64,000 nt of DNA from an uncultured bacterium (GTDB lineage: Bacteria; Patescibacteriota; Minisyncoccia; Phycocordibacterales; JAACPR01), in assembly GCA_937858275.1 (NCBI GenBank), contig CALLZK010000024.1, forward strand, positions 72,745-136,744, given 5' to 3'. How positions within the stretch are numbered: the first letter of the stretch is position 1; every line of letters starts with the position of its first letter. The notes under the pieces were generated by a model that was not told where the DNA came from, searched no databases, and saw only the letters and a list, made by a program, of their open reading frames with translations. Below, one piece after another: positions 28,909 through 62,669 of this stretch. The translations under genes and the position numbers were made by a program.

Positions 28909-29562
28909 CTATCTCAAAAATTCTGCTTCAATTACCCATCTTTCTTGTTTTGAACCAAAAGTATTACAAGTTGAAATAGTTATCATTCTTTTTGAATTAT
29001 CAAATCTAACCAAAGCAGAATTTTCATTAACTAATTTTACACTTTTAACTCTGTAATTATATTTTTTACCGGCAGCAAAAACTTCTATCGTATCACCAAT
29101 AGACAATTTATTTAGATTATTAAAAGCTTTGTATGCTTGATTTCGAACATTTTGTAATCCGGAACTGTGACCAAATACAAACATATTTCCTTTTTCGATT
29201 GAACCAGACCCCGGATAATGGACAGCACCTTGCAATAAATATCTATCTAGTTCCACAACATCTCTGGTATTTGGATTTAAAACGGATGTATCTACACCAA
29301 TTTTTGAAATAATTATCCTGTCAGGTCTTGTGTAATTTTGAGCAACTAACTGATCCCTGTCATCTCTTTGATAAAAAACACTATTGTAATCAATCGCATC
29401 AGAATAATTTTCTATAACCTGTTCCTTACCCAAAAAATCTGAAATTCTATAACCCTCTGGTGCCAAACCGGTTAAAGAAAAAATAAAAAAAGAAATTAAA
29501 AAAATAACAGAAAAAATTCCCAAAAAATAAATGATGTCTTTTTTATTAGAATATAAATCCAT
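28909..29562 (-). CDS. Sortase-family transpeptidase
   Basis: N-terminal TM anchor. Catalytic His (VFGHSSG) and a TLxTC-type active site (ITISTCNT), with a downstream Arg in WVIEAEF. Confidence 0.75.
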   Translation of the reverse strand: MDLYSNKKDIIYFLGIFSVIFLISFFIFSLTGLAPEGYRISDFLGKEQVIENYSDAIDYNSVFYQRDDRDQLVAQNYTRPDRIIISKIGVDTSVLNPNTRDVVELDRYLLQGAVHYPGSGSIEKGNMFVFGHSSGLQNVRNQAYKAFNNLNKLSIGDTIEVFAAGKKYNYRVKSVKLVNENSALVRFDNSKRMITISTCNTFGSKQERWVIEAEFLR

Positions 29563-29655
29563 TTTATTAAAAAGTATTAATTAAAATAATAAATCAATTA
29601 TCAAAACAAGTCAAAATTTGCGATTTTTAATCAAAAAAGTTATTATATAAAAATT

Positions 29656-29739
29656 GCGCAGATGGCAGAGCGGTCAATTGCACCAGACTGTAAATCTGGC
29701 GCCCTAAGGGCTACGGGGGTTCAAGTCCCTCTCTGCGCA
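29656..29739 (+). tRNA. tRNA-Tyr (anticodon GTA), type II with a long variable arm
   Basis: Acceptor stem GCGCAGA/TCTGCGC, anticodon loop CTGTAAA, variable arm GCCCTAAGGGC, T-arm GGGGGTTCAAGTCCCTC, discriminator A. Confidence 0.85.
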
Positions 29740-29803
29740 CAAAAAATAAATTGATTAGTTCTACACTGAATGAAATTTTTCGTTTTATTATTGAAAAAAA
29801 TAT

Positions 29804-29833
29804 TTGACAATAGCATATTTTATATGTTATAAT
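29804..29833 (+). promoter_or_regulatory. Promoter TTGACA-18-TGtTATAAT driving island gene 29906-30430
   Basis: Near-identical (about 85% over 33 nt) to the promoter at 38706-38735. It is followed by a 9-bp palindromic hairpin (29842-29864) and an AAAGGA Shine-Dalgarno. Confidence 0.55.
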
Positions 29834-29905
29834 TATTTATAGATTCAAGAATTCATCTTGAATCATTGTTTTTAAAGTTGGTAAAACCGACAGAAAGGAT
29901 GAGAT

Positions 29906-30430
29906 ATGGTAAACAAAAAAATCATATTTTTTGTAAGAAACAACATCAAGATAATTTCGATCACATTGGTGTTGTGCATGTTCTTTGGTATCTTGCTTGA
30001 GAACATGAGAAATCGCCAGCAGTATCTAGAGATTCTGCTGGATGGTGGACGACCGGTGGTATGGTCAGTTCACCCGTGGAATTTTTGGGCAGTAAAAACC
30101 CATAATTCCAACTTCGGTCACCGCTGGATTGAATCCACAGTGATCGTAGAAATTGACATTATAAATTCCAAAAATCGCCAGAAATTGCGAGAGTTGGAAT
30201 TTATAAAGGCCCTTAATGAATTGTTGATTTCCGAAAGGAAATTAAATAAAATGATGGGCCTACCGCCAACAAAAAAAGTTGGCGGTGAAAGAGTTCGACT
30301 GGCAGATGTGCAAGTCGAACAAACCGTGGTCGGCCTAAGCTCTAACGAGTTGGCCACAAGAAAAATCAGAATGTTTCTTGCAGAAATGCAAGACACAAAC
30401 AAAGTCGGGGGAATCGTAATACCCCGATAA
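29906..30430 (+). CDS. Hypothetical membrane-anchored protein (174 aa); GC-atypical island gene
   Basis: One N-terminal TM helix. About 52% GC in a sampled 60-mer. Bounded by a strong promoter and a perfect 9-bp-stem terminator. Confidence 0.55.
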   Translation: MVNKKIIFFVRNNIKIISITLVLCMFFGILLENMRNRQQYLEILLDGGRPVVWSVHPWNFWAVKTHNSNFGHRWIESTVIVEIDIINSKNRQKLRELEFIKALNELLISERKLNKMMGLPPTKKVGGERVRLADVQVEQTVVGLSSNELATRKIRMFLAEMQDTNKVGGIVIPR

Positions 30431-30438
30431 AGAACTTT

Positions 30439-30476
30439 AGACCCCGGCAATTTATTTTGCCCGGGGTCTTTTATTA
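30439..30476 (+). terminator. Rho-independent terminator (AGACCCCGG...CCGGGGTCT followed by a T-run)
   Basis: A perfect 9-bp GC-rich stem, a 13-nt loop, then TTTTATTATT. Confidence 0.8.
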
Positions 30477-30593
30477 TTGAAACAACTAATCCCTATTCAA
30501 CAAATCTAAAACGCGGAATTTCTTTCCCTTCGAAATTAATCATCTCAAAAAACATTTTTTTGAGATTTTCCAGGTTTTATTTCCATAATATTT

Positions 30594-33269
30594 TTATACC
30601 CCAACAACAGAATTTTCTGTAAAGCTAGAAACTTTTTTTCCTCTTTTAACATCAAAAACAAATTGATTATTTTTGTGATCCACCGTAACCACATCTCCAT
30701 CTGCGAGATTTGATTTTATAATAAGCTGGGCTAATGTGTTTAGTATTTTATCTTGAATTAATCTCTTTAGGGGTCGTGCTCCGTAATGAGGATCGTAACC
30801 ATCTTTTGCCAAAATAGAAATAGCATTTGGTGAAATTTTCAAACCAATTCCCTTTTGTTCTAATCTTTTTCTAACTTCATCTAATTGAATATCGGTAATT
30901 TTTTGAATTGAATCCTGACTTAAAATATCAAAAATAATTATGTCATCCAAACGATTCAAAAATTCCGGTCTAAAATTATCTTTTAGTGATTTCATAACAT
31001 TTTGTTTTGCATCTTGATATTGAACATTTGCTGTTTCACCAAAAGAAAATCCAATTTTTTCCATTTTATCAATATACTCTGCTCCAATATTTGAAGTCAA
31101 AATAATTATTGAATTTTTGAAGTTAACCAAACGACCTTTTGCATCAGTCAATCTTCCATTATCCAAAACCTGCAACAAAATATTGAAAACTTCTGGGTGA
31201 GCTTTTTCAATTTCATCAAATAAAATTACAGAATACGGCCTATGACGAATTGTTTCTGTTAAGGTACCAGAATCCTCGTGTCCAACATATCCAGGAGGTG
31301 CTCCAATCATTTTTGAAATAGAATGTTTTTCCATATATTCTGACATATCAACACGAATCAGGGCTTTGTCGTCATTGAACATAAATTCAGCCAATGCTTT
31401 TGTTAATTCTGTTTTACCAACCCCAGTTGGACCAAGAAATATAAAAGATCCGATCGGACGATTTGGGTCAGCAACACCGGCACGAGAACGACGAATTGTA
31501 TCTGCGATTTTGTGAACGGCATTATCCTGGCCGATAATTCTTTTTTTCAAATCATCTTCCATTCTAGATAATTTTGTGGCTTCTTCTTCAAGCATTTTTG
31601 AAACAGGAATACTAGTCCAACGAGACACAACAGAAGCTATGTCTTCTTCGGTTATTTCTTCTTTCAAAATTTGTCTAGAGCTTTGTAACTGCTTTAATCT
31701 TTTTTCTTTTGATTTTAAATCTTTTTCAAGTTGCGGAATCAGACCGTAACGAATTTCTGCCGCTTTTGTTAAATCAACTGCTGATTCAGCACTTTCAGCA
31801 TCAATTCTGGCTCTTTCTAATTTTGATTTTAAATCTTTTATGGCAACGATTGTTTCTTTTTCATTCTTCCATTTTAATTCTAATTCTCTGATTCCCTCTT
31901 TCAAATCAGCAACATCTTTTTCAATCTCTTTTAATCTTTCGGAGGTTTTCTTTGATTTTTTTGATTCATTTTTTAGGGCCTCTCTTTCTATTTCTAATCT
32001 TGTAATTTTTCGACGGGTATTTTCTAATTCTGGAGGCATGTTTTCTAAAGAAATTTTTAATGTTGAAGAAGCCTCGTCAATTAAGTCTACAGCTTTATCT
32101 GGTAAAAATCTGTCTGTTATATAACGGCTAGACAATTCAACAGATGCCACAATTGCATCATCTGAAATTCTTACTCCGTGATACAGTTCATATTTTTCTT
32201 TTAATCCTCTCATTATGGAAATTGCATCTTCGATAGATGGTTCATTTACATGAACTGGTTGAAATCTACGAGTCAGGGCAGAATCTTTTTCAATATATTT
32301 TTGATATTCTTTTAGAGTTGTTGCACCAATAACTTTTATCTCTCCTCTTGCCAATGCTGGTTTTAACATGTTTGAAGCATCCAAAGACCCTTCTGATGCA
32401 CCGGCACCAGAAAGTGTATGAATTTCATCTATAAACAAAATTATTTTCCCCTCAGCAGCAATGGCTTCTTTTATTATTTTCTTTAAGCGATCTTCAAATT
32501 CACCACGATATTTTGTTCCGGCGACTAATCCGCCAAGATCCAAACAGACCAATTCTCTATCTTTTAGAGATTCTGGAACATCACCTTGTGAAATTCTAAG
32601 TGCCAAACCTTCGACTATTGCTGTTTTTCCAACCCCAGCCTCCCCTATCAAAATAGGATTATTTTTGGTTCTTCGAGATAAAATTTGAATTACACGATTT
32701 ATTTCCTGATCTCTTCCAATAACCGGATCTAATTTATTTTGAGAAGCTTTTTCGGTAAGACTTTGTGTATATTTTTTTATAGACTTATAACTTTTTGGGG
32801 ATTTTTCAAAATCACTTTTACTATTTCTAAGATCGTTTAGAATTTTTAAAACCTGAGATTTGTCTATTTTAAAAGTTTCTAAAATTTCTTTTGCGGAACT
32901 TCTAATATCAAAACATGCCAAAAACAAATGCTCTGTAGAAACAAAATTATCTCCCAAAGAACTCGCAATCGTATTTGAATGTTCAATTATTTGAGCAAGT
33001 TCTGGCACCAAATACATTTGAAAAGACGGCGACAAAACTTCTCTGCTTTCCAGATTATCTATTGCATCAAATAATGTTTCTGTTAATAAAACAGAGTCTA
33101 CTCCTATTTTATCCAAGATAGAAGAAACAATACTTTCCTCTTGTGCAACTAAAGCAGTCAATAAATGATTTGGATTAACATGATTTTGACCTCTTTCTAT
33201 AGCAAATTCATGAGACTGTTTTATGGCCTCTCTTGCTTTTGCTGTGAAATTTTTGAATGGTGGCATCAT
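30594..33269 (-). CDS. clpB: Chaperone ClpB (AAA+ disaggregase)
   Basis: Clp_N repeats, two AAA+ modules (GEAGVGKTA and GPTGVGKTE), and a coiled-coil M-domain between them. Confidence 0.95.
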
Positions 33270-37867: not shown

Positions 37868-37949
37868 GCCCGGGTGGCGGAATTGGTATACGCGCACGAC
37901 TTAAAATCGTGTCCCTTACGGGTTGCGGGTTCGACCCCCGCCCCGGGCA
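37868..37949 (+). tRNA. tRNA-Leu (TAA), type II
   Basis: Acceptor stem GCCCGGG/CCCGGGC, anticodon stem-loop CACGA-CTTAAAA-TCGTG, long variable arm, T-arm GCGGGTTCGACCCCCGC. Confidence 0.85.
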
Positions 37950-38007
37950 CAAATAGAAAGTTTTAAAATTACAAGTGCACTCGCACGACTTTCTATTCAA
38001 ATATTTG

Positions 38008-38050
38008 CGTGTCCCTTACGGGTTGCGGGTTCGACCCCCGCCCCGGGCAC
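38008..38050 (+). repeat. 43-nt direct duplicate of the 3' portion of tRNA-Leu(TAA) (identical to 37908-37950), exactly 100 bp downstream
   Basis: CGTGTCCCTTACGGGTTGCGGGTTCGACCCCCGCCCCGGGCAC occurs twice. The intervening 57 bp contains a 10-bp inverted repeat AATAGAAAGT/ACTTTCTATT. Confidence 0.85.
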
Positions 38051-38061
38051 AATAAAATAAA

Positions 38062-38134: not shown

Positions 38135-38192
38135 CAAAAATAATTTAAAAATCTTGCTTAGTTATGTTTTTATGTGTAATATATTTAACATT

Positions 38193-38273
38193 GCGCGGGT
38201 GGTGAAATGGCAGACACGCTTGCCTTAGGAGCAAGTGCCGCAAGGCATGGAGGTTCAAGTCCTCTCCCGCGCA
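38193..38273 (+). tRNA. tRNA-Leu (TAG), type II
   Basis: Acceptor stem GCGCGGG/CCCGCGC, anticodon stem-loop CTTGC-CTTAGGA-GCAAG, long variable arm, T-arm GGAGGTTCAAGTCCTCT. Confidence 0.85.
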
Positions 38274-38626
38274 CATAAAACAAAGGAGGAGGATGCGAAA
38301 GCATTCTCCGACTTTTGTTTTACAAGCGGAGAGGGCTTGAAAGCCGGACTGAGTAAAAAGAGCGGAGCGATTTTTTACGAAGGAGGCGGGGTCGCGAGTT
38401 TCGAGGCAAAGCCGAGAAAATTTGTGACCAAGTCCTCTCCCGCGCACATAAAACAAAGGAGGAGGATGCGAAAGCATTCTCCGACTTTTGTTTTACAAGC
38501 GGAGAGGGCTTGAAAGCCGGACTGAGTAAAAAGAGCGGAGCGATTTTTTACGAAGGAGGCGGGGTCGCGAGTTTCGAGGCAAAGCCGAGAAAACTTGTGA
38601 CCAAGTCCTCTCCCGCGCACATAAAA
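38256..38626 (+). repeat. 173-bp tandem repeat, about 2.1 copies, each unit beginning with the last approximately 19 nt of tRNA-Leu(TAG)
   Basis: Units at 38256-38428 and 38429-38601, plus a partial third copy at 38602-38626. The full units differ by a single T/C. CAAGTCCTCTCCCGCGCACATAAAA recurs three times. Confidence 0.9.
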
Positions 38627-38705
38627 TCGCAAAAAAATATTTTAATATTATTTTTTGCCATAATTAAATAATCATCAAAAATCAAAATTACTAAAACAAA
38701 TCGAT

Positions 38706-38735
38706 CAATTTCTGATTGACAAAACAGTATTTTAT
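38706..38735 (+). promoter_or_regulatory. Promoter TTGACA-18-TGtTATAAT driving the SPFH-like island operon
   Basis: Same sequence family as 29804-29833. Followed by a 9-bp hairpin (38752-38776), a second hairpin GCCGGACAATCCGGC, and an AAAGGAG Shine-Dalgarno. Confidence 0.55.
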
Positions 38736-38848
38736 ATGTTATAATTAAAGATAGAAAAATAACTCTTTAACCTGTTGTTAAAGAGATTGAACATTGTCAG
38801 AAAGTAAGTTTGATAAAGCCGGACAATCCGGCAAAAGGAGAATGAGTT

Positions 38849-39997
38849 ATGAGTGGATTTTTGATAGTATTTGTGTTTGGCGGGTTAATCTCGGCATTTC
38901 TGGCCATTGTGGCCGGAGCATCTTCTTTTGGAATGTCAAAGGAAGATCATGACAGCGAGGTTCCGCAAGGGCCTCGAATGTTATTCCACTTCCTATCGGC
39001 GATAATTGTCTTTGCAATAACGGTGATTTTATCTTCATTATTGATTGACAAGGTGGGCCTGTTTAACAGACCACTTCCCCTTATTTTGGGGGTAATGTTT
39101 GCCGGAGCGGTTTTCAAGATTCCAGCATTCTACACAGAAGTTGCTGGAAACACCGCCAAAGTCGCGGTTCCGCTTTTTGGTGGAACAATTGGCGACAAGG
39201 GAATTGTTTTGTACCGAATTTTTCTATCTGGTTTCAAATGGAAATTTCCATGGGAAACCTTTGGGAAAGACTCGTCAGTTGACTTGGAGAAAGATACAAC
39301 AATTTCCAAGTCGATTGAGGTTGAGTTTGCTGACGGTATAGGCAAACTAACATGGGTCGCAACTATGCAACCCAACAAAAACAAAATCCAGCAACTTTTA
39401 AACATCGGAATAAATCCCGATGAAAGAAAAAAAGTGTTGGAAGCAGTTTTTACATCATTCTTCAATTCACTCATCGGTGTTGCCTGCAAAGGTGAGAAAA
39501 TCGATGAGATTATGGGTGATCGTAAAAAAATCATCCAAAAGGTCGTTGGAGACAAAGCATCCAACGGTCTGGAAGAAAAAGAACTGATGTACGGCATCAG
39601 CCTTAACTCGTTTGTGATCAGTGATATAGATTACTCAAGCGAGGACAGAAAGAAAGCCAAGGAACAGATGGCTGTTGCAGACATTTTTATGCAAACAGTT
39701 GTTATGATCCTAAAAAGACGAGGTTTTACCGATGAGCAAGTCGGTAAAATTGGAAAAAAAGGTGGAGTTCCGAAGAAAGAATATGCCGAGGCGGTTCGCC
39801 TTGCCAAGATTCTTTCGGACGAGGTCAATGCCTGGGATATCAATATATCGGGTATTGAAAATCTGCAAAATCTTCACCTACCAGCAGATGCCGCAAGAAT
39901 GATGTTTGCTGCTGGTGGCCAGAAAACTGGTCGCCAAGGAAATCAACAAAAACCGTTTTCCGGGCAAAAATCCGGGAACGGGAAAGGGGAAAAATGA
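38849..39997 (+). CDS. Membrane protein with three N-terminal TM helices and an SPFH/Band-7-like (stomatin/flotillin/HflKC-like) domain; Gly/Gln-rich C-terminal tail
   Basis: The hydrophobic N-terminus is followed by a domain that follows the SPFH consensus pattern, ending in ...YGISLNSFVISDIDYSSEDRKKAKEQMAVAD. About 40-53% GC. Confidence 0.55.
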   Translation: MSGFLIVFVFGGLISAFLAIVAGASSFGMSKEDHDSEVPQGPRMLFHFLSAIIVFAITVILSSLLIDKVGLFNRPLPLILGVMFAGAVFKIPAFYTEVAGNTAKVAVPLFGGTIGDKGIVLYRIFLSGFKWKFPWETFGKDSSVDLEKDTTISKSIEVEFADGIGKLTWVATMQPNKNKIQQLLNIGINPDERKKVLEAVFTSFFNSLIGVACKGEKIDEIMGDRKKIIQKVVGDKASNGLEEKELMYGISLNSFVISDIDYSSEDRKKAKEQMAVADIFMQTVVMILKRRGFTDEQVGKIGKKGGVPKKEYAEAVRLAKILSDEVNAWDINISGIENLQNLHLPADAARMMFAAGGQKTGRQGNQQKPFSGQKSGNGKGEK

Positions 39998-40479
39998 GCT
40001 CAACATCACAAACCCAAAAGACAATAAACAAAATAGTCTTTTGGGTAACAATGTTGGCGGTGGTGATAATCATCATCGTCTTCATGCCCAAGTGTGGCAG
40101 TGATCGTAATTCGGGCAGTTGTGCGATACCAGTGTCCTCATCGGACACGAAAACCGCAAAAACAGTGCCGAATTACGGTCCAGCCATCATAAGGTTGGGC
40201 CCCGGGGAAATCACGGACATAATCCTGACGAGGGGCGAATTCTTTGAGTGGAATTGCCCCACTGATGGATTCAAAATCCGAGTGTTTCAAAGAAACGGAA
40301 TGCCTTTCGTTTCCAGAAACACTGATCCGGGTGGATGGGTTTTGAGGATATCGAATTGCATTCGATATCAATGCTGGTTGAAAGATATAACCAGCATGTC
40401 GGTACATGGGATACAATTTGGTGTACCGACCAATCTGTCTTCTGGTGTAGAAATTCAATACACCAGAAACAGAATGTAA
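39994..40479 (+). CDS. Hypothetical membrane-anchored Cys-containing protein (161 aa); possible NfeD-like partner of the SPFH protein
   Basis: Its start overlaps the previous stop (ATGA). One TM helix followed by a beta-rich region with 5 Cys. About 53% GC. Confidence 0.5.
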   Translation: MSSTSQTQKTINKIVFWVTMLAVVIIIIVFMPKCGSDRNSGSCAIPVSSSDTKTAKTVPNYGPAIIRLGPGEITDIILTRGEFFEWNCPTDGFKIRVFQRNGMPFVSRNTDPGGWVLRISNCIRYQCWLKDITSMSVHGIQFGVPTNLSSGVEIQYTRNRM

Positions 40480-40516
40480 AACACACCGTTTCTAACGGTG
40501 TGCCACATGCAATAAC

Positions 40517-40556
40517 CAAGACCTCGTTGCCAACGCACGAGGTCTTTTCTTTTTTA
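40517..40556 (+). terminator. Rho-independent terminator (AGACCTCGT...ACGAGGTCT followed by a T-run); a second hairpin lies at 40482-40503
   Basis: A 9-bp stem followed by TTTTCTTTTTT. It lies between the convergent island operon and gpmI. Confidence 0.7.
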
Positions 40557-40563
40557 CAAAATA

Positions 40564-42054
40564 TTAGATCAAAAGAGAATTACCAGTCATGCAATTTGGT
40601 TTTTTAATTTCAAACAAGTCCAAAACTGTTGGTGCCAAATCAATTAAAGAACCGTTTTTAATTTTAAAATCATTTGAGGTTAATATGCACGGAACCTGAT
40701 TAAGAGTATGAGATGTATGCAATTCTTTTGTTATAGGATCAATATTCAATTCAGCATTTCCATGATCTGCTGTAATAATAGCCACTCCGTTTTTTTTGGA
40801 CAAAGCATCAATTACTCTCTTTAATTCCCCATCAACGACTTCCACGGCTTTTATTATGGCGGAAACATTTGCGGTATGACCAACCATGTCCGGATTTGCA
40901 AAATTTATAAAAATAAAATCTACCCCCTGATTTATTTTTTTTATTGCTTCGTCTGCAATTTCTCTGGCTTTCATCTCTGGAGCCAAATCGTGTGTTGCCA
41001 CATCTTTACGACTAGGAATCAAAATATGTTCTTCTTTTTCAAATGGTTTTTCTACACCACCATTTAAAAAATATGTTGCATGAGGAAACTTTTCAGTTTC
41101 AGCAATATGAACCTGAGATAATCCAGCTTGAGAAATTTCTTTTGCCAAAACGGTTTCTATTTCTTTTGCAGGAAAAGCGACTTGCACATCAAAATCTTGA
41201 CTGTATTCTGTAAATGTCAGTATTTTAATATTTTTTTGTTTTTGTTCTTCTAATAATTTTGAAGTCAACATTCTAACCCTATCTGCTCTAAAATTAAAAA
41301 TTATTACAGCATCATTTTCTGATAATGAACAATTTTGAACCACAAAAGGCTTTATGTGTTCATCGCTTTTTACAATCTCATGTTGTTTTTTAATTTCAGA
41401 AATAATTTCTTCAAAACTTAATTTTAAATTTTTGTTTTGCGATTCTTTCAATAAGTTCAAAAAATTATCTAATCTATCCCAATTATTATCTCTGTCCATT
41501 GAATAATATCTACCAGAAATGGTAGATATAAAAATGTTTGAATTTATTTTTTTGAATAATTCAAATAAAATTTTTATTGAATCTTGTGGGCCACTATCTC
41601 GCCCATCTGTAAAAAGGTGTAGAGCAACTTTTTGTAAATTATTTTTTTTACACAAATCAATTAAAGCATTTAGATGTTCTTGATGAGAATGAACTCCGCC
41701 CTCACCAAGTAATCCCATAATATGCAATGTTGAATTTTTTTCTTTAACAGAATCAAAAATTTTTTTAAATTCTGAATTATTTTCAAAATCGCCATTTTTG
41801 ATTGATTTTGAAATTTTAACCAAGTCAGTATCAATAACTTGACCAGCTCCAATTGTCATATGACCAATTTCACTATTTCCAACTTGTCCCCTTGGCAAAC
41901 CAACATGTTCTTCTCCAGCATGCAATAAACTATGTGGATAATTATTCCATAAGTTATCAAAAAATTCAGTTTTTGATTTTGCAATTGCATTGTTTTCAAA
42001 ATCAACACTGTGACCCCAGCCATCCAAAATTATCAGAGCAACTTGTTTTTTCAT
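40564..42054 (-). CDS. gpmI: 2,3-bisphosphoglycerate-independent phosphoglycerate mutase
   Basis: MKKQVALIILDGWGH N-terminus and conserved iPGM blocks. Confidence 0.93.
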   Translation of the reverse strand: MKKQVALIILDGWGHSVDFENNAIAKSKTEFFDNLWNNYPHSLLHAGEEHVGLPRGQVGNSEIGHMTIGAGQVIDTDLVKISKSIKNGDFENNSEFKKIFDSVKEKNSTLHIMGLLGEGGVHSHQEHLNALIDLCKKNNLQKVALHLFTDGRDSGPQDSIKILFELFKKINSNIFISTISGRYYSMDRDNNWDRLDNFLNLLKESQNKNLKLSFEEIISEIKKQHEIVKSDEHIKPFVVQNCSLSENDAVIIFNFRADRVRMLTSKLLEEQKQKNIKILTFTEYSQDFDVQVAFPAKEIETVLAKEISQAGLSQVHIAETEKFPHATYFLNGGVEKPFEKEEHILIPSRKDVATHDLAPEMKAREIADEAIKKINQGVDFIFINFANPDMVGHTANVSAIIKAVEVVDGELKRVIDALSKKNGVAIITADHGNAELNIDPITKELHTSHTLNQVPCILTSNDFKIKNGSLIDLAPTVLDLFEIKKPNCMTGNSLLI

Positions 42055-44825: not shown

Positions 44826-45245
44826 ATGAAAATTTTGATAATAGACGATAATAGGTCGGTTGCTGAAAAGATGAGTAAAATTATAACCGATTTTCTCATC
44901 GGGGCCGAAGTTACAGTTTGTTCAATGTCTTACAGTCCAGATCAAAGTCCGAGACTTAGGATTCCGGACATTGATACTGTCCAGAGACTTATCGAGAGTC
45001 ACGACCTAATCTTGATAGATCACAATCTTGGACAGATTGAGTTTGATGGTTCAATTTTGGCAAGATTTTGTCAAAAAAATGGTAAATTTCACATAGGAAT
45101 TTCTAGCCATTCATCTTTTTGCAAGACAAATTTTATGGCCAAACATGAACTAGATATTCATCCGGCATTTGTTGAAGCATTCGAAAACATTTTGGCAGAT
45201 ACGATTGCCGAAATGAAGAAAATTCAATTATCCAAAATTAGATAG
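44826..45245 (+). CDS. Orphan response-regulator receiver (REC) domain protein with no output domain
   Basis: MKILIIDDN and the phospho-acceptor context DLILIDHNL. About 45% GC. Own Shine-Dalgarno and terminator. No histidine kinase nearby. Confidence 0.55.
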   Translation: MKILIIDDNRSVAEKMSKIITDFLIGAEVTVCSMSYSPDQSPRLRIPDIDTVQRLIESHDLILIDHNLGQIEFDGSILARFCQKNGKFHIGISSHSSFCKTNFMAKHELDIHPAFVEAFENILADTIAEMKKIQLSKIR

Positions 45246-62108: not shown

Positions 62109-62465
62109 TTATTCTTCCGATTTTTGAGGAATGCTTGTTTTGATAGCAAATATCAAAACAAGAGAAGCAATTACAATATTGCCAAACTGTTCTATATTTA
62201 TACCAAAAATTCCGCCGCTTGCCATGGTCCCAATCAGAAAAAATGTGACAACGAACCAATTGGTTCGATCAAGCATTCTGTCCAAAAATACGGCGATGAG
62301 TCCCACGATCCACAAAAAGAAGCACAGGACCGATGTCGTTTTCTCCAAATTACTTGGAATTTGAAAAAATCCCAAATAAATGCTTGTTTCTACAAAAAAA
62401 ACGATTGCTAAAACGAGAAAAAATCCCGCCCGAGCAAATTTCAGTCCGATTCTCTCTTTTTCCAT
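62109..62465 (-). CDS. Hypothetical small polytopic membrane protein (118 aa)
   Basis: ORF with 3-4 predicted TM helices. No recognisable family. Confidence 0.45.
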   Translation of the reverse strand: MEKERIGLKFARAGFFLVLAIVFFVETSIYLGFFQIPSNLEKTTSVLCFFLWIVGLIAVFLDRMLDRTNWFVVTFFLIGTMASGGIFGINIEQFGNIVIASLVLIFAIKTSIPQKSEE

Positions 62466-62669
62466 AATTTCCCACCTTTCTGTGTGTTGTTGTTAAAAAA
62501 CTTTTCAGTCTTAAATACTAACATACTATATATATTTTGTCAAAATAATATATTTGATGAAAAATTTACAGAAAATTAAAATTATTAATTTCAAACATTT
62601 AACAAAGTACATATTTTTAAAGATATTTTTTGCTTTTTAAAATAAAATTTGATATTATCTTATTTTGAT

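Follow-up and report, generated by a model that had tools for sequence, protein, structure and literature searches.

The whole 64-kb stretch analysed here (contig CALLZK010000024.1, hereafter the window; 31.0% GC) comes from a Candidatus Paceibacterota genome of the candidate phyla radiation (CPR) and carries, between tRNA-Tyr and clpB, a 686-bp promoter-to-terminator block that we call the Tyr islet. The islet is a lineage-specific autonomous expression cassette in a genome of about 31% GC. It has its own promoter and terminator and encodes a single 174-aa protein, by its sequence a membrane-anchored ORFan, on an mRNA predicted to fold into an unbroken series of hairpins. The overall reading that we favour, at roughly even confidence, is a lineage-specific expression cassette for an envelope protein, resembling phage morons or the PeSL (promoter early stem-loop) cassettes of T4-type phages and borne on an exceptionally structured mRNA. 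An orphan gene beside a tRNA is routine on its own; the hairpin-tiled mRNA, which is the main feature of this DNA and was overlooked in its preliminary description, makes the finding worth following up.

The Tyr islet and its hairpin-tiled mRNA

The islet begins 42 nt past tRNA-Tyr. Its elements and immediate flanks are the following.

29656-29740, + strand: tRNA-Tyr, anticodon GTA (ARAGORN; Rfam tRNA model, 59.5 bits); upstream neighbour, outside the insert
29783-29802, + strand: left flanking direct repeat TTTTATTATTGAAAAAAATA, with the exact 14-mer TTTTATTATTGAAA (repeat search; copies 18/20 identical)
29804-29833, + strand: extended -10 sigma-70 promoter, TTGACA-18-TATAAT (12/12 hexamer positions plus TG)
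29842-29864, + strand: 9-bp hairpin, then UUGUUUUU; 1-2 nt from the predicted 5' end of the transcript
29893-29898, + strand: Shine-Dalgarno site AAAGGA, 7 nt ahead of the ATG (read from the sequence)
29906-30430, + strand: coding sequence (CDS) of the 174-aa ORFan (open reading frame (ORF) call); its mRNA is covered by hairpins
30439-30480, + strand: intrinsic terminator, a 12-bp G+C-rich stem (30439-30469) and a U tract (folding)
30469-30488, + strand: right flanking direct repeat TTTTATTATTGAAACAACTA, overlapping the terminator U tract
30542-30566, strand not assigned: 11-bp A+T hairpin just beyond the clpB stop codon, outside the insert

The predicted transcript (29840-30480) folds at -246 kcal/mol, compared with -154 +/- 6 kcal/mol for dinucleotide shuffles (z = -15.1). 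It forms a chain of about 17 near-perfect local hairpins, each of 22-38 nt and 9-15 bp and several with GNRA loops, that cover the leader, the entire CDS and the terminator. Patchy base composition was ruled out as an artefact behind this value: shuffling within 20-, 40- and 80-nt blocks left the islet at z -13 to -17, with the sortase and clpB segments at about 0. Shuffles among synonymous codons, which keep both the protein and its codon usage, gave z = -11.3 and -13.7 for the 174-aa gene in two runs, and it is mainly the choice among synonymous codons that builds the structure. The same type of shuffle, applied to 68 genes from 84 kb of the genome (median z -0.5, interquartile range -1.8 to 0.6), showed this gene as the most extreme, with a minimum free energy 53% beyond expectation; second and third came two genes of an island beside tRNA-Leu that is described below, for proteins of 161 aa (z = -10.8) and 382 aa (z = -8.2). 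This would be a bacterial CDS, found in nature, with a degree of folding otherwise typical only of structural RNAs, viroid-like RNAs or mRNAs designed by computer. No account of bacterial coding genes tiled with hairpins turned up in full-text literature searches.

A 240-nt sliding scan of the window (background -0.7 +/- 1.9) gave long runs below -4.3 only at 29641-30600 and 38161-40680, the second of which falls on the tRNA-Leu island. A less costly scan over 80 other loci (1.38 Mb in all) returned isolated structured windows (terminators, tRNAs, thrS leaders and probable rRNA) and no comparable structured coding runs; one structured run, in locus L017, was set aside as probably rRNA (about 52% GC, no long ORF), an assignment not confirmed with Rfam. 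G+C-rich DNA is not automatically scored as structured, because a 1291-aa gene of 42% GC in the block L086:13281-18035, about 2-7 kb to the right of the window, gave z = -0.6 and +1.6. This gene has faint acetyltransferase matches in Pfam and lies beside an HTH/XRE gene and a 128-aa gene whose G+C content at third codon positions (GC3) is 0.51; the block is probably compositionally foreign. Nor is strong mRNA structure confined to G+C-rich genes, since a 96-aa gene for a small membrane protein (L086:12978-13268, - strand), A+T-rich with a GC of 0.25 and directly upstream of a tRNA, gave a synonymous-shuffle z of -6.8. The hairpins were also considered as copies of repetitive extragenic palindromic (REP), miniature inverted-repeat transposable (MITE) or Rickettsia palindromic (RPE) elements, an origin rejected on finding no k-mers common beyond chance within or between islands.

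Sense RNA folds better than its complement in every island segment, and for the Tyr unit the values are -246 vs -215 kcal/mol (z -19 vs -12). Across four protein-coding island segments (the Tyr transcript and three pieces of the tRNA-Leu island) there are 79 G.U pairs in the sense folds vs 36 in the antisense folds. When only Watson-Crick pairs were allowed, the 1x1 mismatches and helix-end juxtapositions comprised 77 G.U and 21 A.C, for which composition predicts about equal numbers. Because sense folds better and G.U exceeds A.C, the data point to the sense transcript, rather than the DNA duplex, as the molecule under constraint. Part of the G.U excess could come from C-to-T bias on the non-template strand, which counts against this step of the argument.

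The same figures bear on whether the hairpins could be a neutral mutational product, for example of template-switch correction of quasi-palindromes in highly transcribed DNA. Such an origin would fit stems that are mostly perfect Watson-Crick, an antisense strand that also folds well (z = -12) and the presence of a very strong promoter in or next to every affected unit. It fits poorly with the preponderance of G.U over A.C (77 vs 21), as transcription-associated strand bias usually yields less, and with stems of at most 15 bp, the occurrence of GNRA loops, and reading frames and a recognisable protein domain kept through dense hairpins. Moreover, strong promotion does not bring hairpins with it in orf233, in the ORF of contig L082 (both described below) or in a cold-shock gene, all of which are unaffected. 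We therefore regard a neutral origin as very improbable.

The 174-codon ORF is real, neither a chance feature nor a by-product of RNA structure, because none of 20,000 randomisations that kept the predicted pairing scheme together with pair and loop composition gave a stop-free run of at least 174 codons (mean 57, maximum 158). A Shine-Dalgarno site and a positive-inside transmembrane anchor accompany it. These results have to be set against the alternative that the functional product is a large structured RNA, non-coding or dual-function, with the ORF secondary or untranslated. Some ornate large RNAs (GOLLD, ROOL) are G+C-rich units in A+T-rich genomes beside tRNA, and the islet shares with them a G+C-rich promoter-to-terminator unit next to a tRNA in an A+T-rich genome, with structure biased to the sense strand. 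Its 240-nt windows reach z -8.8 and -11.5, a stronger fold than in tRNA- or rRNA-containing windows of equal size (-5.7 to -6.5 over the tRNA cluster), and non-coding 174-nt units beside tRNA-Leu are equally structured. However, the ORF spans the interval from Shine-Dalgarno site to terminator exactly, at a length that no randomisation matched, and its product starts with a typical positive-inside anchor. The equally structured sister island encodes a Pfam SPFH domain and two translationally overlapping ORFs, and Rfam, run on the islet, returned only tRNAs at the gathering score and only terminator-like chance matches at E <= 10. A purely or mainly RNA product is thus considered improbable. 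A 110-aa ORF at 30118-30450 (- strand), antisense to the 174-aa gene, is most simply a mirror of the palindrome-rich sense sequence and not a gene.

The 174-aa protein begins with four basic residues, followed by one hydrophobic helix at about residues 16-31 (hydropathy peak 13-31) and a basic C-terminal domain of 140 residues (pI 10). Its topology is predicted by the positive-inside rule to be N-in and C-out, with the domain facing outward; no lipobox or obvious signal-peptidase site could be read from the sequence. The protein is deposited as a hypothetical protein in Candidatus Paceibacterota metagenome-assembled genomes (HMO78658.1 and others). Both a word-indexed search of 5.8 billion clustered proteins and a full phmmer search of 1.84 billion representatives retrieved only the protein itself. 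It has no match in Pfam, PHROGs, NCBIfam, PADLOC or PDB, the best PHROG hit being to a family of unknown function at E = 0.35, which is not meaningful, and tblastn against INPHARED phages and PLSDB plasmids gave no match. IMG/VR viral contigs contain neither the protein nor the promoter pattern. A single-sequence AlphaFold (AF2) model reached a predicted local distance difference test score (pLDDT) of 43, too low to inform a fold.

The anatomy of the cassette is conventional beside its RNA. The -35 box TTGACA (29804-29809) and the -10 box TATAAT (29828-29833) are separated by an 18-nt spacer with TG at 29825-29826, and transcription is predicted to start at about 29840; the hairpin at 29842-29864 would serve as a 5' stabiliser or an attenuator. 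The preliminary description had proposed a self-contained unit adjoining tRNA-Tyr, with a membrane-anchored product of no recognisable domain. This was borne out, as tRNA, promoter and CDS are all present at the positions listed, hydropathy gives one N-terminal transmembrane helix, and none of the domain and structure databases named above returned a match. Its "perfect terminator" survives as a hairpin with a U tract, but not as perfect in the strict sense, the stem carrying one bulged C; UCUUUUAUUAUU comes after the stem, and a simple terminator scan did not detect this terminator.

Related cassettes and their shared promoter

The promoter of the Tyr islet recurs at 38716-38745 with 28/30 positions equal and two mismatches, and a 20-nt core, TATTTTATATGTTATAATTA, is identical at 38728-38747, spacer positions outside the consensus among them. 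The window contains no third copy, and the number expected by chance is 0.00. The sharing of a promoter with an island at 38.7 kb, noted in the preliminary description, was thus confirmed, and by their sequence the two promoters are homologous. The leaders are also alike: each has a 5' hairpin (38763-38785 in the Leu cassette, analogous to 29842-29864 in the Tyr cassette), CAGAAAG, and GA(A)TGAGnTATG at the start codon. The Leu island and a third, diverged cassette in the window are laid out as follows.

38275-38629, + strand: Leu island, part 1; two tandem 174-nt non-coding units after tRNA-Leu(TAG) (read from the sequence)
38716-40550, + strand: Leu island, part 2; promoter (38716-38745), 5' hairpin, two genes and two terminator hairpins
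62109-62543, - strand: diverged cassette between tRNA-Glu and tRNA-Val, encoding a 118-aa multi-pass membrane ORFan

The genes of part 2 encode a 382-aa SPFH/Band-7-like membrane protein (38849-39997) and, overlapping it, a 161-aa membrane-anchored protein (39994-40479). The 382-aa protein is also an ORFan, with a Pfam Band_7 match that is weak yet above threshold (E = 6e-6), and the 161-aa protein has a weak PHROG match to a Sie-like (superinfection exclusion) family (E = 0.029). The two genes have GC3 values of 0.42 and 0.51, fold z scores of -9.6 and -14.2, and synonymous-shuffle z scores of -8.9 and -11.8. The tRNA-Leu island is placed in the same class as the Tyr islet because it has the same promoter and the same hyper-structure. 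Despite the shared promoter, the cargo proteins of the two cassettes are unrelated; by BLASTP the 174-aa protein shows no similarity to either Leu-island protein (382 aa, 161 aa) or to the ORF of contig L082.

Within 38258-38629, the 174-nt units of part 1 each close with a duplicate of the final ~24 nt of tRNA-Leu(TAG) and its trailer, and AAGTCCTCTCCCGCGCACATAAAA occurs three times in all. A unit folds into a long GAAA-capped hairpin and a domain where the tRNA-end copy is paired to its complement inside the unit; one unit has z = -8.5, the whole tandem stretch z = -12.3, and Rfam has no match for these units. The promoter cassette of part 2 sits distal to the last tRNA-fragment copy. Close by, tRNA-Leu(TAA) (window 37868-38051) is followed about 60 nt downstream by a 42-nt duplicate of its 3' part at 38010-38051, and the bases just upstream of this duplicate also resemble the anticodon-arm region. 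The duplicate may be the scar of an integration event, or else a second copy of the tRNA, truncated or interrupted.

Outside the genome, an exact search with the 25 specified promoter positions through 241 million metagenome records retrieved one contig (CEPX01150511.1; L082). In L082:1-1283 the promoter leads into a Shine-Dalgarno site, the gene of a 156-aa ORFan anchored in the membrane by its N-terminus, and a terminator. This cassette lies antisense between rplB and rpsS and has 55% GC, vs about 41% in the rpsS flank. It could be a chance match, though its architecture agrees. Promoter and hyper-structure are separable, as L082 has the promoter without the hyper-structure. Beside this cassette, a ~120-nt element with a perfect 20-nt inverted repeat (1010-1029 / 1106-1125) abuts the rplB stop codon. 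In phage genomes, blastn with promoter plus leader gave only generic promoter noise.

The cassette between tRNA-Glu and tRNA-Val has the promoter TTGACA-17-TAGTAT with TG (62543-62515), a leader that shares ACAGAAAGG, and two terminator hairpins. Its gene has a GC3 of 0.37 and moderate structure, with synonymous-shuffle z scores of -4.4 and -3.2.

Origin of the islet

The closest genome in the GTDB species set (L002) served as the sole comparator for the locus. It is distant, with identities to this genome of 63% for ThrRS, 70% for ClpB and 51% for sortase. The order sortase (-), tRNA-Tyr (+), clpB (-) is kept in L002, and the gap between tRNA-Tyr and the clpB stop codon is 47 bp there, occupied by a single hairpin, vs 853 bp here. 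Judged by this synteny, the orthologous locus is empty, and the comparison at tRNA-Tyr to which the preliminary description had pointed came out in its favour. The hairpin at 30542-30566 is probably the native clpB terminator, since L002 also has a hairpin between tRNA-Tyr and clpB. The neighbours of the islet are ordinary housekeeping genes: DnaE, ThrRS (27165-28907, + strand) and sortase (28909-29562, - strand) are encoded upstream of tRNA-Tyr and ClpB (30594-33269, - strand) downstream. The called neighbours comprise a protease, ClpB, sortase, ThrRS, an ORFan and DnaE, with no phage genes nearby.

The promoter-to-terminator block is flanked by a direct repeat of 14/20 nt, that is, an exact 14-mer in 20-nt copies. 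Equally good flank matches arose in 1/1000 Markov shuffles and in 2/978 empirical pairs of low-GC window segments (p ~0.001-0.002), and the 14-mer occurs exactly twice in the window, only at the two flanks. The left copy lies directly 5' of the -35 box, where an AT-rich UP-like element would sit. The repeat is unrelated to tRNA-Tyr. Recombination at it would give a circle with the junction ...CCCGGGGTCTTTTATTATTGAAAAAAATATTTGACAAT... and leave the empty junction ...AATTTTTCGTTTTATTATTGAAACAACTAATCCC.... With one distant comparator to draw on, these observations favour insertion at a short AT-rich repeat over tRNA-directed integration. The block would then be a small cassette of moron-like or PeSL-like type, brought in by recombination at this repeat with no tRNA-directed integrase taking part.

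A different route is the one implied by the preliminary description, which saw here a tRNA integration hotspot: the islet might be the remnant of an integrative element that targeted tRNA-Tyr with a tyrosine integrase and then lost all but one cargo gene. The unit does adjoin tRNA-Tyr and has its promoter in common with the Leu island, and the three 3'-end copies of tRNA-Leu(TAG), together with the 42-nt duplicate of tRNA-Leu(TAA), indicate that tRNA-directed integration has occurred in this genome. Likewise, genomic islands of the tyrosine-integrase type, such as tycheposon-like elements, resemble the islet in being tRNA-adjacent, in carrying a lineage-specific gene and in their atypical composition, with tRNA-Leu 3'-end repeats nearby. 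At the islet itself, however, no partial repeat of the tRNA-Tyr 3' end was found beyond 30480, where one had been anticipated; the candidate at 30640-30672 (76% identical) was rejected as it lies inside the C-terminal clpB coding sequence, which is conserved in L002. None of the called genes within 4 kb of the sortase gene, on either flank, has an integrase or recombinase match in Pfam. A stretch of 42 nt separates the tRNA from the insert, whose flanking repeat is unrelated to the tRNA, and even in the Leu island the promoter cassette sits distal to the last tRNA-fragment copy. The hotspot is therefore not supported, and we give a tRNA-integrative remnant little credence.

Composition says less about origin than was first supposed. 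The preliminary description gave about 52% GC, roughly double the background, which did not hold: GC is 38.7% over 29656-30480 and 40.6-40.8% in the CDS, against 31.0% for the window, and only the best 100-nt windows reach 0.48-0.51. The anomaly lies instead at third codon positions: the 174-aa gene has a GC3 of 0.47, compared with 0.15-0.24 in typical host genes. Among 52 long ORFs of the window, comparable values occur only in the two Leu-island genes (0.42, 0.51) and in a shadow ORF over the tRNA-Leu repeats (38145-38477, GC3 0.48), with intermediate values of 0.32-0.37 in a few. At unpaired sites the GC3 of the islet gene is 0.27 vs 0.18 in the host, a difference to be read with the shuffled controls, which show a similar paired/unpaired bias. 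The composition argument for acquisition is weakened because the GC excess coincides with extreme mRNA structure, and because of the following case.

A 242-aa gene (uvr242; L083:1386-2114, - strand) lies between uvrB and uvrA, about 10 kb to the left of the window, and its product looks like a divergent P-loop-kinase-like protein. It has a GC of 0.44, a GC3 of 0.42, a fold z of -8.9 and synonymous-shuffle z scores of -6.7 to -7.3. Its only homologue (L093:120-854, from another metagenome, SRR22077921) is 67% identical and occupies the same uvrB/uvrA locus, with the same uvrB end and the same terminator, and this copy is unstructured (z = -1.6) at a GC of 0.365. Among the synonymous differences between the two, sites with G/C in uvr242 are paired in 38/47 cases and sites with A/T in 10/23. 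As the orthologue at the same locus is unstructured and lower in GC, a GC excess alone is no proof of transfer; in at least this case high GC and hairpins are, by the comparison of the two sequences, an overlay on an inherited gene.

By extension, the 174-aa gene could be a native, fast-evolving gene whose G+C excess is a by-product of selection or mutation for hairpins, with the L002 lineage having lost it or never had it. The contrast between uvr242 and its L093 orthologue and the pairing of its synonymous G/C sites speak for this, as do the structured A+T-rich 96-aa gene (z = -6.8) and the fixed, invariant state of the islet in all assemblies. Other evidence is harder to accommodate. The two copies of the direct repeat enclose precisely the promoter-to-terminator block, L002 has nothing at this locus, and the same promoter stands in front of two cassettes. 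In contrast to uvr242 with its homologue, the 174-aa protein is a strict ORFan. The GC3 of 0.27 at unpaired sites, above the 0.18 of the host, would be a further point, to be read with the similar bias of the shuffled controls. We consider a native gene unlikely.

Acquisition as a moron-like or PeSL-like cassette is favoured with several points weighing against it. Given the distance to L002 (ThrRS 63%), the islet may have been lost in that lineage. The islet is present on all 9/9 contigs whose sortase is identical; over 1.8 kb, four independent assemblies do not differ, the islet being invariant in them. The predicted empty junction was not found in metagenome contigs, protein clusters contain no relative of at least 90% identity from which closer synteny could be read, and the searches described above found no donor, homologue or empty-site strain. 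No comparable flanking direct repeat is present at the Leu and L082 cassettes, and the L082 cassette is not hyper-structured (z = -1.3). Finally, with uvr242 as an inherited gene bearing the same overlay, composition by itself does not suffice to conclude that the islet was acquired. Of the small acquired cargo gene put forward in the preliminary description, what stands is the empty L002 locus, the ORFan product and the shared promoter; the compositional part has been weakened by the mRNA structure and by uvr242.

Between dnaE and thrS there is a further ORFan, orf233 (215-233 aa; ORF 26361-27062, - strand, within 26278-27164), which lies antisense and has its own TTGACA promoter, Shine-Dalgarno site and terminator, a GC3 of 0.33 and an mRNA that is not hyper-structured (z about -1.3 to -1.9). 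Since dnaE and thrS are only 46 bp apart in L002, orf233 counts as another single-gene insertion.

Comparison with known systems and possible roles

The closest documented analogue of the islet, by its organisation, is the PeSL cassette. In T4-type phages, PeSL units set a stem-loop terminator and a consensus sigma-70 promoter, preceded by an AT-rich tract, next to small ORFans, and recombination between repeats moves promoter-ORF units, also as mini-circles (Arbiol et al. 2010, PMC2839356). The islet likewise joins a strong sigma-70 promoter and a stem-loop terminator to an ORFan, and its regulatory sequence recurs between cassettes with unrelated cargo, L082 sharing with it the 25 specified promoter positions. 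It differs in lying in a bacterial chromosome and not in a phage hyperplastic region, and in having a promoter of only two or three copies. Hairpin tiling of a whole CDS is not described for PeSL ORFans.

Phage morons, according to Hendrix and colleagues, are reportedly autonomous promoter-gene-terminator units in prophages. They often encode constitutively expressed membrane proteins. The islet resembles them as a single gene with its own promoter and terminator, set between conserved neighbours and unlike its surroundings in composition, but there is no surrounding prophage, its protein has no phage homologue and its promoter is absent from viral contigs. Integron cassettes have an attC recombination site at their 3' end, depend on an intI integrase and usually have no promoter, unlike the islet with its strong one; moreover, the 3' hairpin shows no RYYYAAC/GTTRRRY cores, being a plain G+C stem with a U tract, and there is no integrase.

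For the RNA, the nearest parallels are RNA viruses with genome-scale ordered RNA structure (GORS) and mRNAs designed with LinearDesign-type programs, in which pervasive pairing through synonymous choice is linked to RNA persistence and a longer functional half-life. The islet shares with them pervasive CDS pairing achieved through synonymous choice. It differs as a chromosomal bacterial gene and in an energy excess of 27-53% beyond synonymous shuffles, larger than is known of GORS viruses. OLE, GOLLD and ROOL are G+C-rich structured transcripts of A+T-rich genomes, sometimes beside tRNAs, and Rickettsia palindromic elements place palindromes inside reading frames; in contrast to these, the islet has no Rfam match, a full ORF, and hairpins that are all unique sequences.

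In the favoured reading of a moron-like or PeSL-like cassette, the strong promoter, the 5'-terminal stem-loop and the hairpin-saturated CDS would together give high and durable expression. That hairpins at the 5' end, a paired body and a terminator hinder 5'-end-dependent and internal endonucleases, 3' exonucleases and Rho is an established principle. Here, little single-stranded RNA would be left exposed to any of them, and stems of at most 15 bp would fall below typical RNase III substrates. The product would be an envelope-exposed accessory protein. Sie-type proteins of temperate phages, which block the entry of phage DNA, have about 160-190 aa, an N-terminal membrane anchor, an external C-terminal domain and a constitutive promoter of their own. 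The 174-aa protein is similarly small, with an N-terminal anchor and a predicted external domain, but it has no sequence similarity to such proteins in PHROGs and no PADLOC match. A superinfection-exclusion-like or envelope-protective role is only a guess, drawn by analogy from the size, topology and moron-like expression of the protein and from the weak Sie-like PHROG match of the 161-aa protein. If it were such an envelope or exclusion factor, it would bear on how episymbionts handle phages or hosts. We infer the stabilisation of the mRNA, the evasion of Rho and the role of the protein, and this inferential character counts against the functional side of the reading.

A broader interpretation, which we put forward tentatively and think somewhat doubtful, is that this Paceibacterota genome contains an undescribed class of protein-coding genes whose mRNAs are selected for near-complete double-strandedness. 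The class as defined comprises genes with chains of 9-15-bp hairpins and energies 27-53% beyond synonymous-shuffle expectation, and some of its members may lie on promoter/terminator cassettes with one conserved promoter in common. The purpose of the structure would be at the RNA level: it may confer extreme nuclease or Rho resistance that keeps a few envelope proteins made when bulk mRNA is destroyed, the RNA may itself have a further function, or the cassettes may spread through an RNA stage. If such a class exists, a local rise in G+C within an A+T-rich CPR genome would point to structured mRNAs and not only to foreign DNA.

RNA structure can create or sustain a GC or GC3 anomaly in an A+T-rich genome, which is commonly read as a sign of horizontal transfer; composition-based island calls in CPR genomes therefore need a control for it. 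Promoter-ORF-terminator cassettes are, in addition, a possible entry route of ORFan membrane proteins into CPR genomes, which are otherwise poor in recognisable mobile elements. The effect of CDS structure on mRNA life and protein yield is directly testable by comparing the native gene with a recoded one.

Elsewhere in the window, a stand-alone 139-aa gene with its own promoter and terminator (44826-45245) has a GC3 of 0.32 and z scores of -3.4 to -3.6; its product, which starts MKILIIDDN, looks by its sequence like a response-regulator receiver domain.

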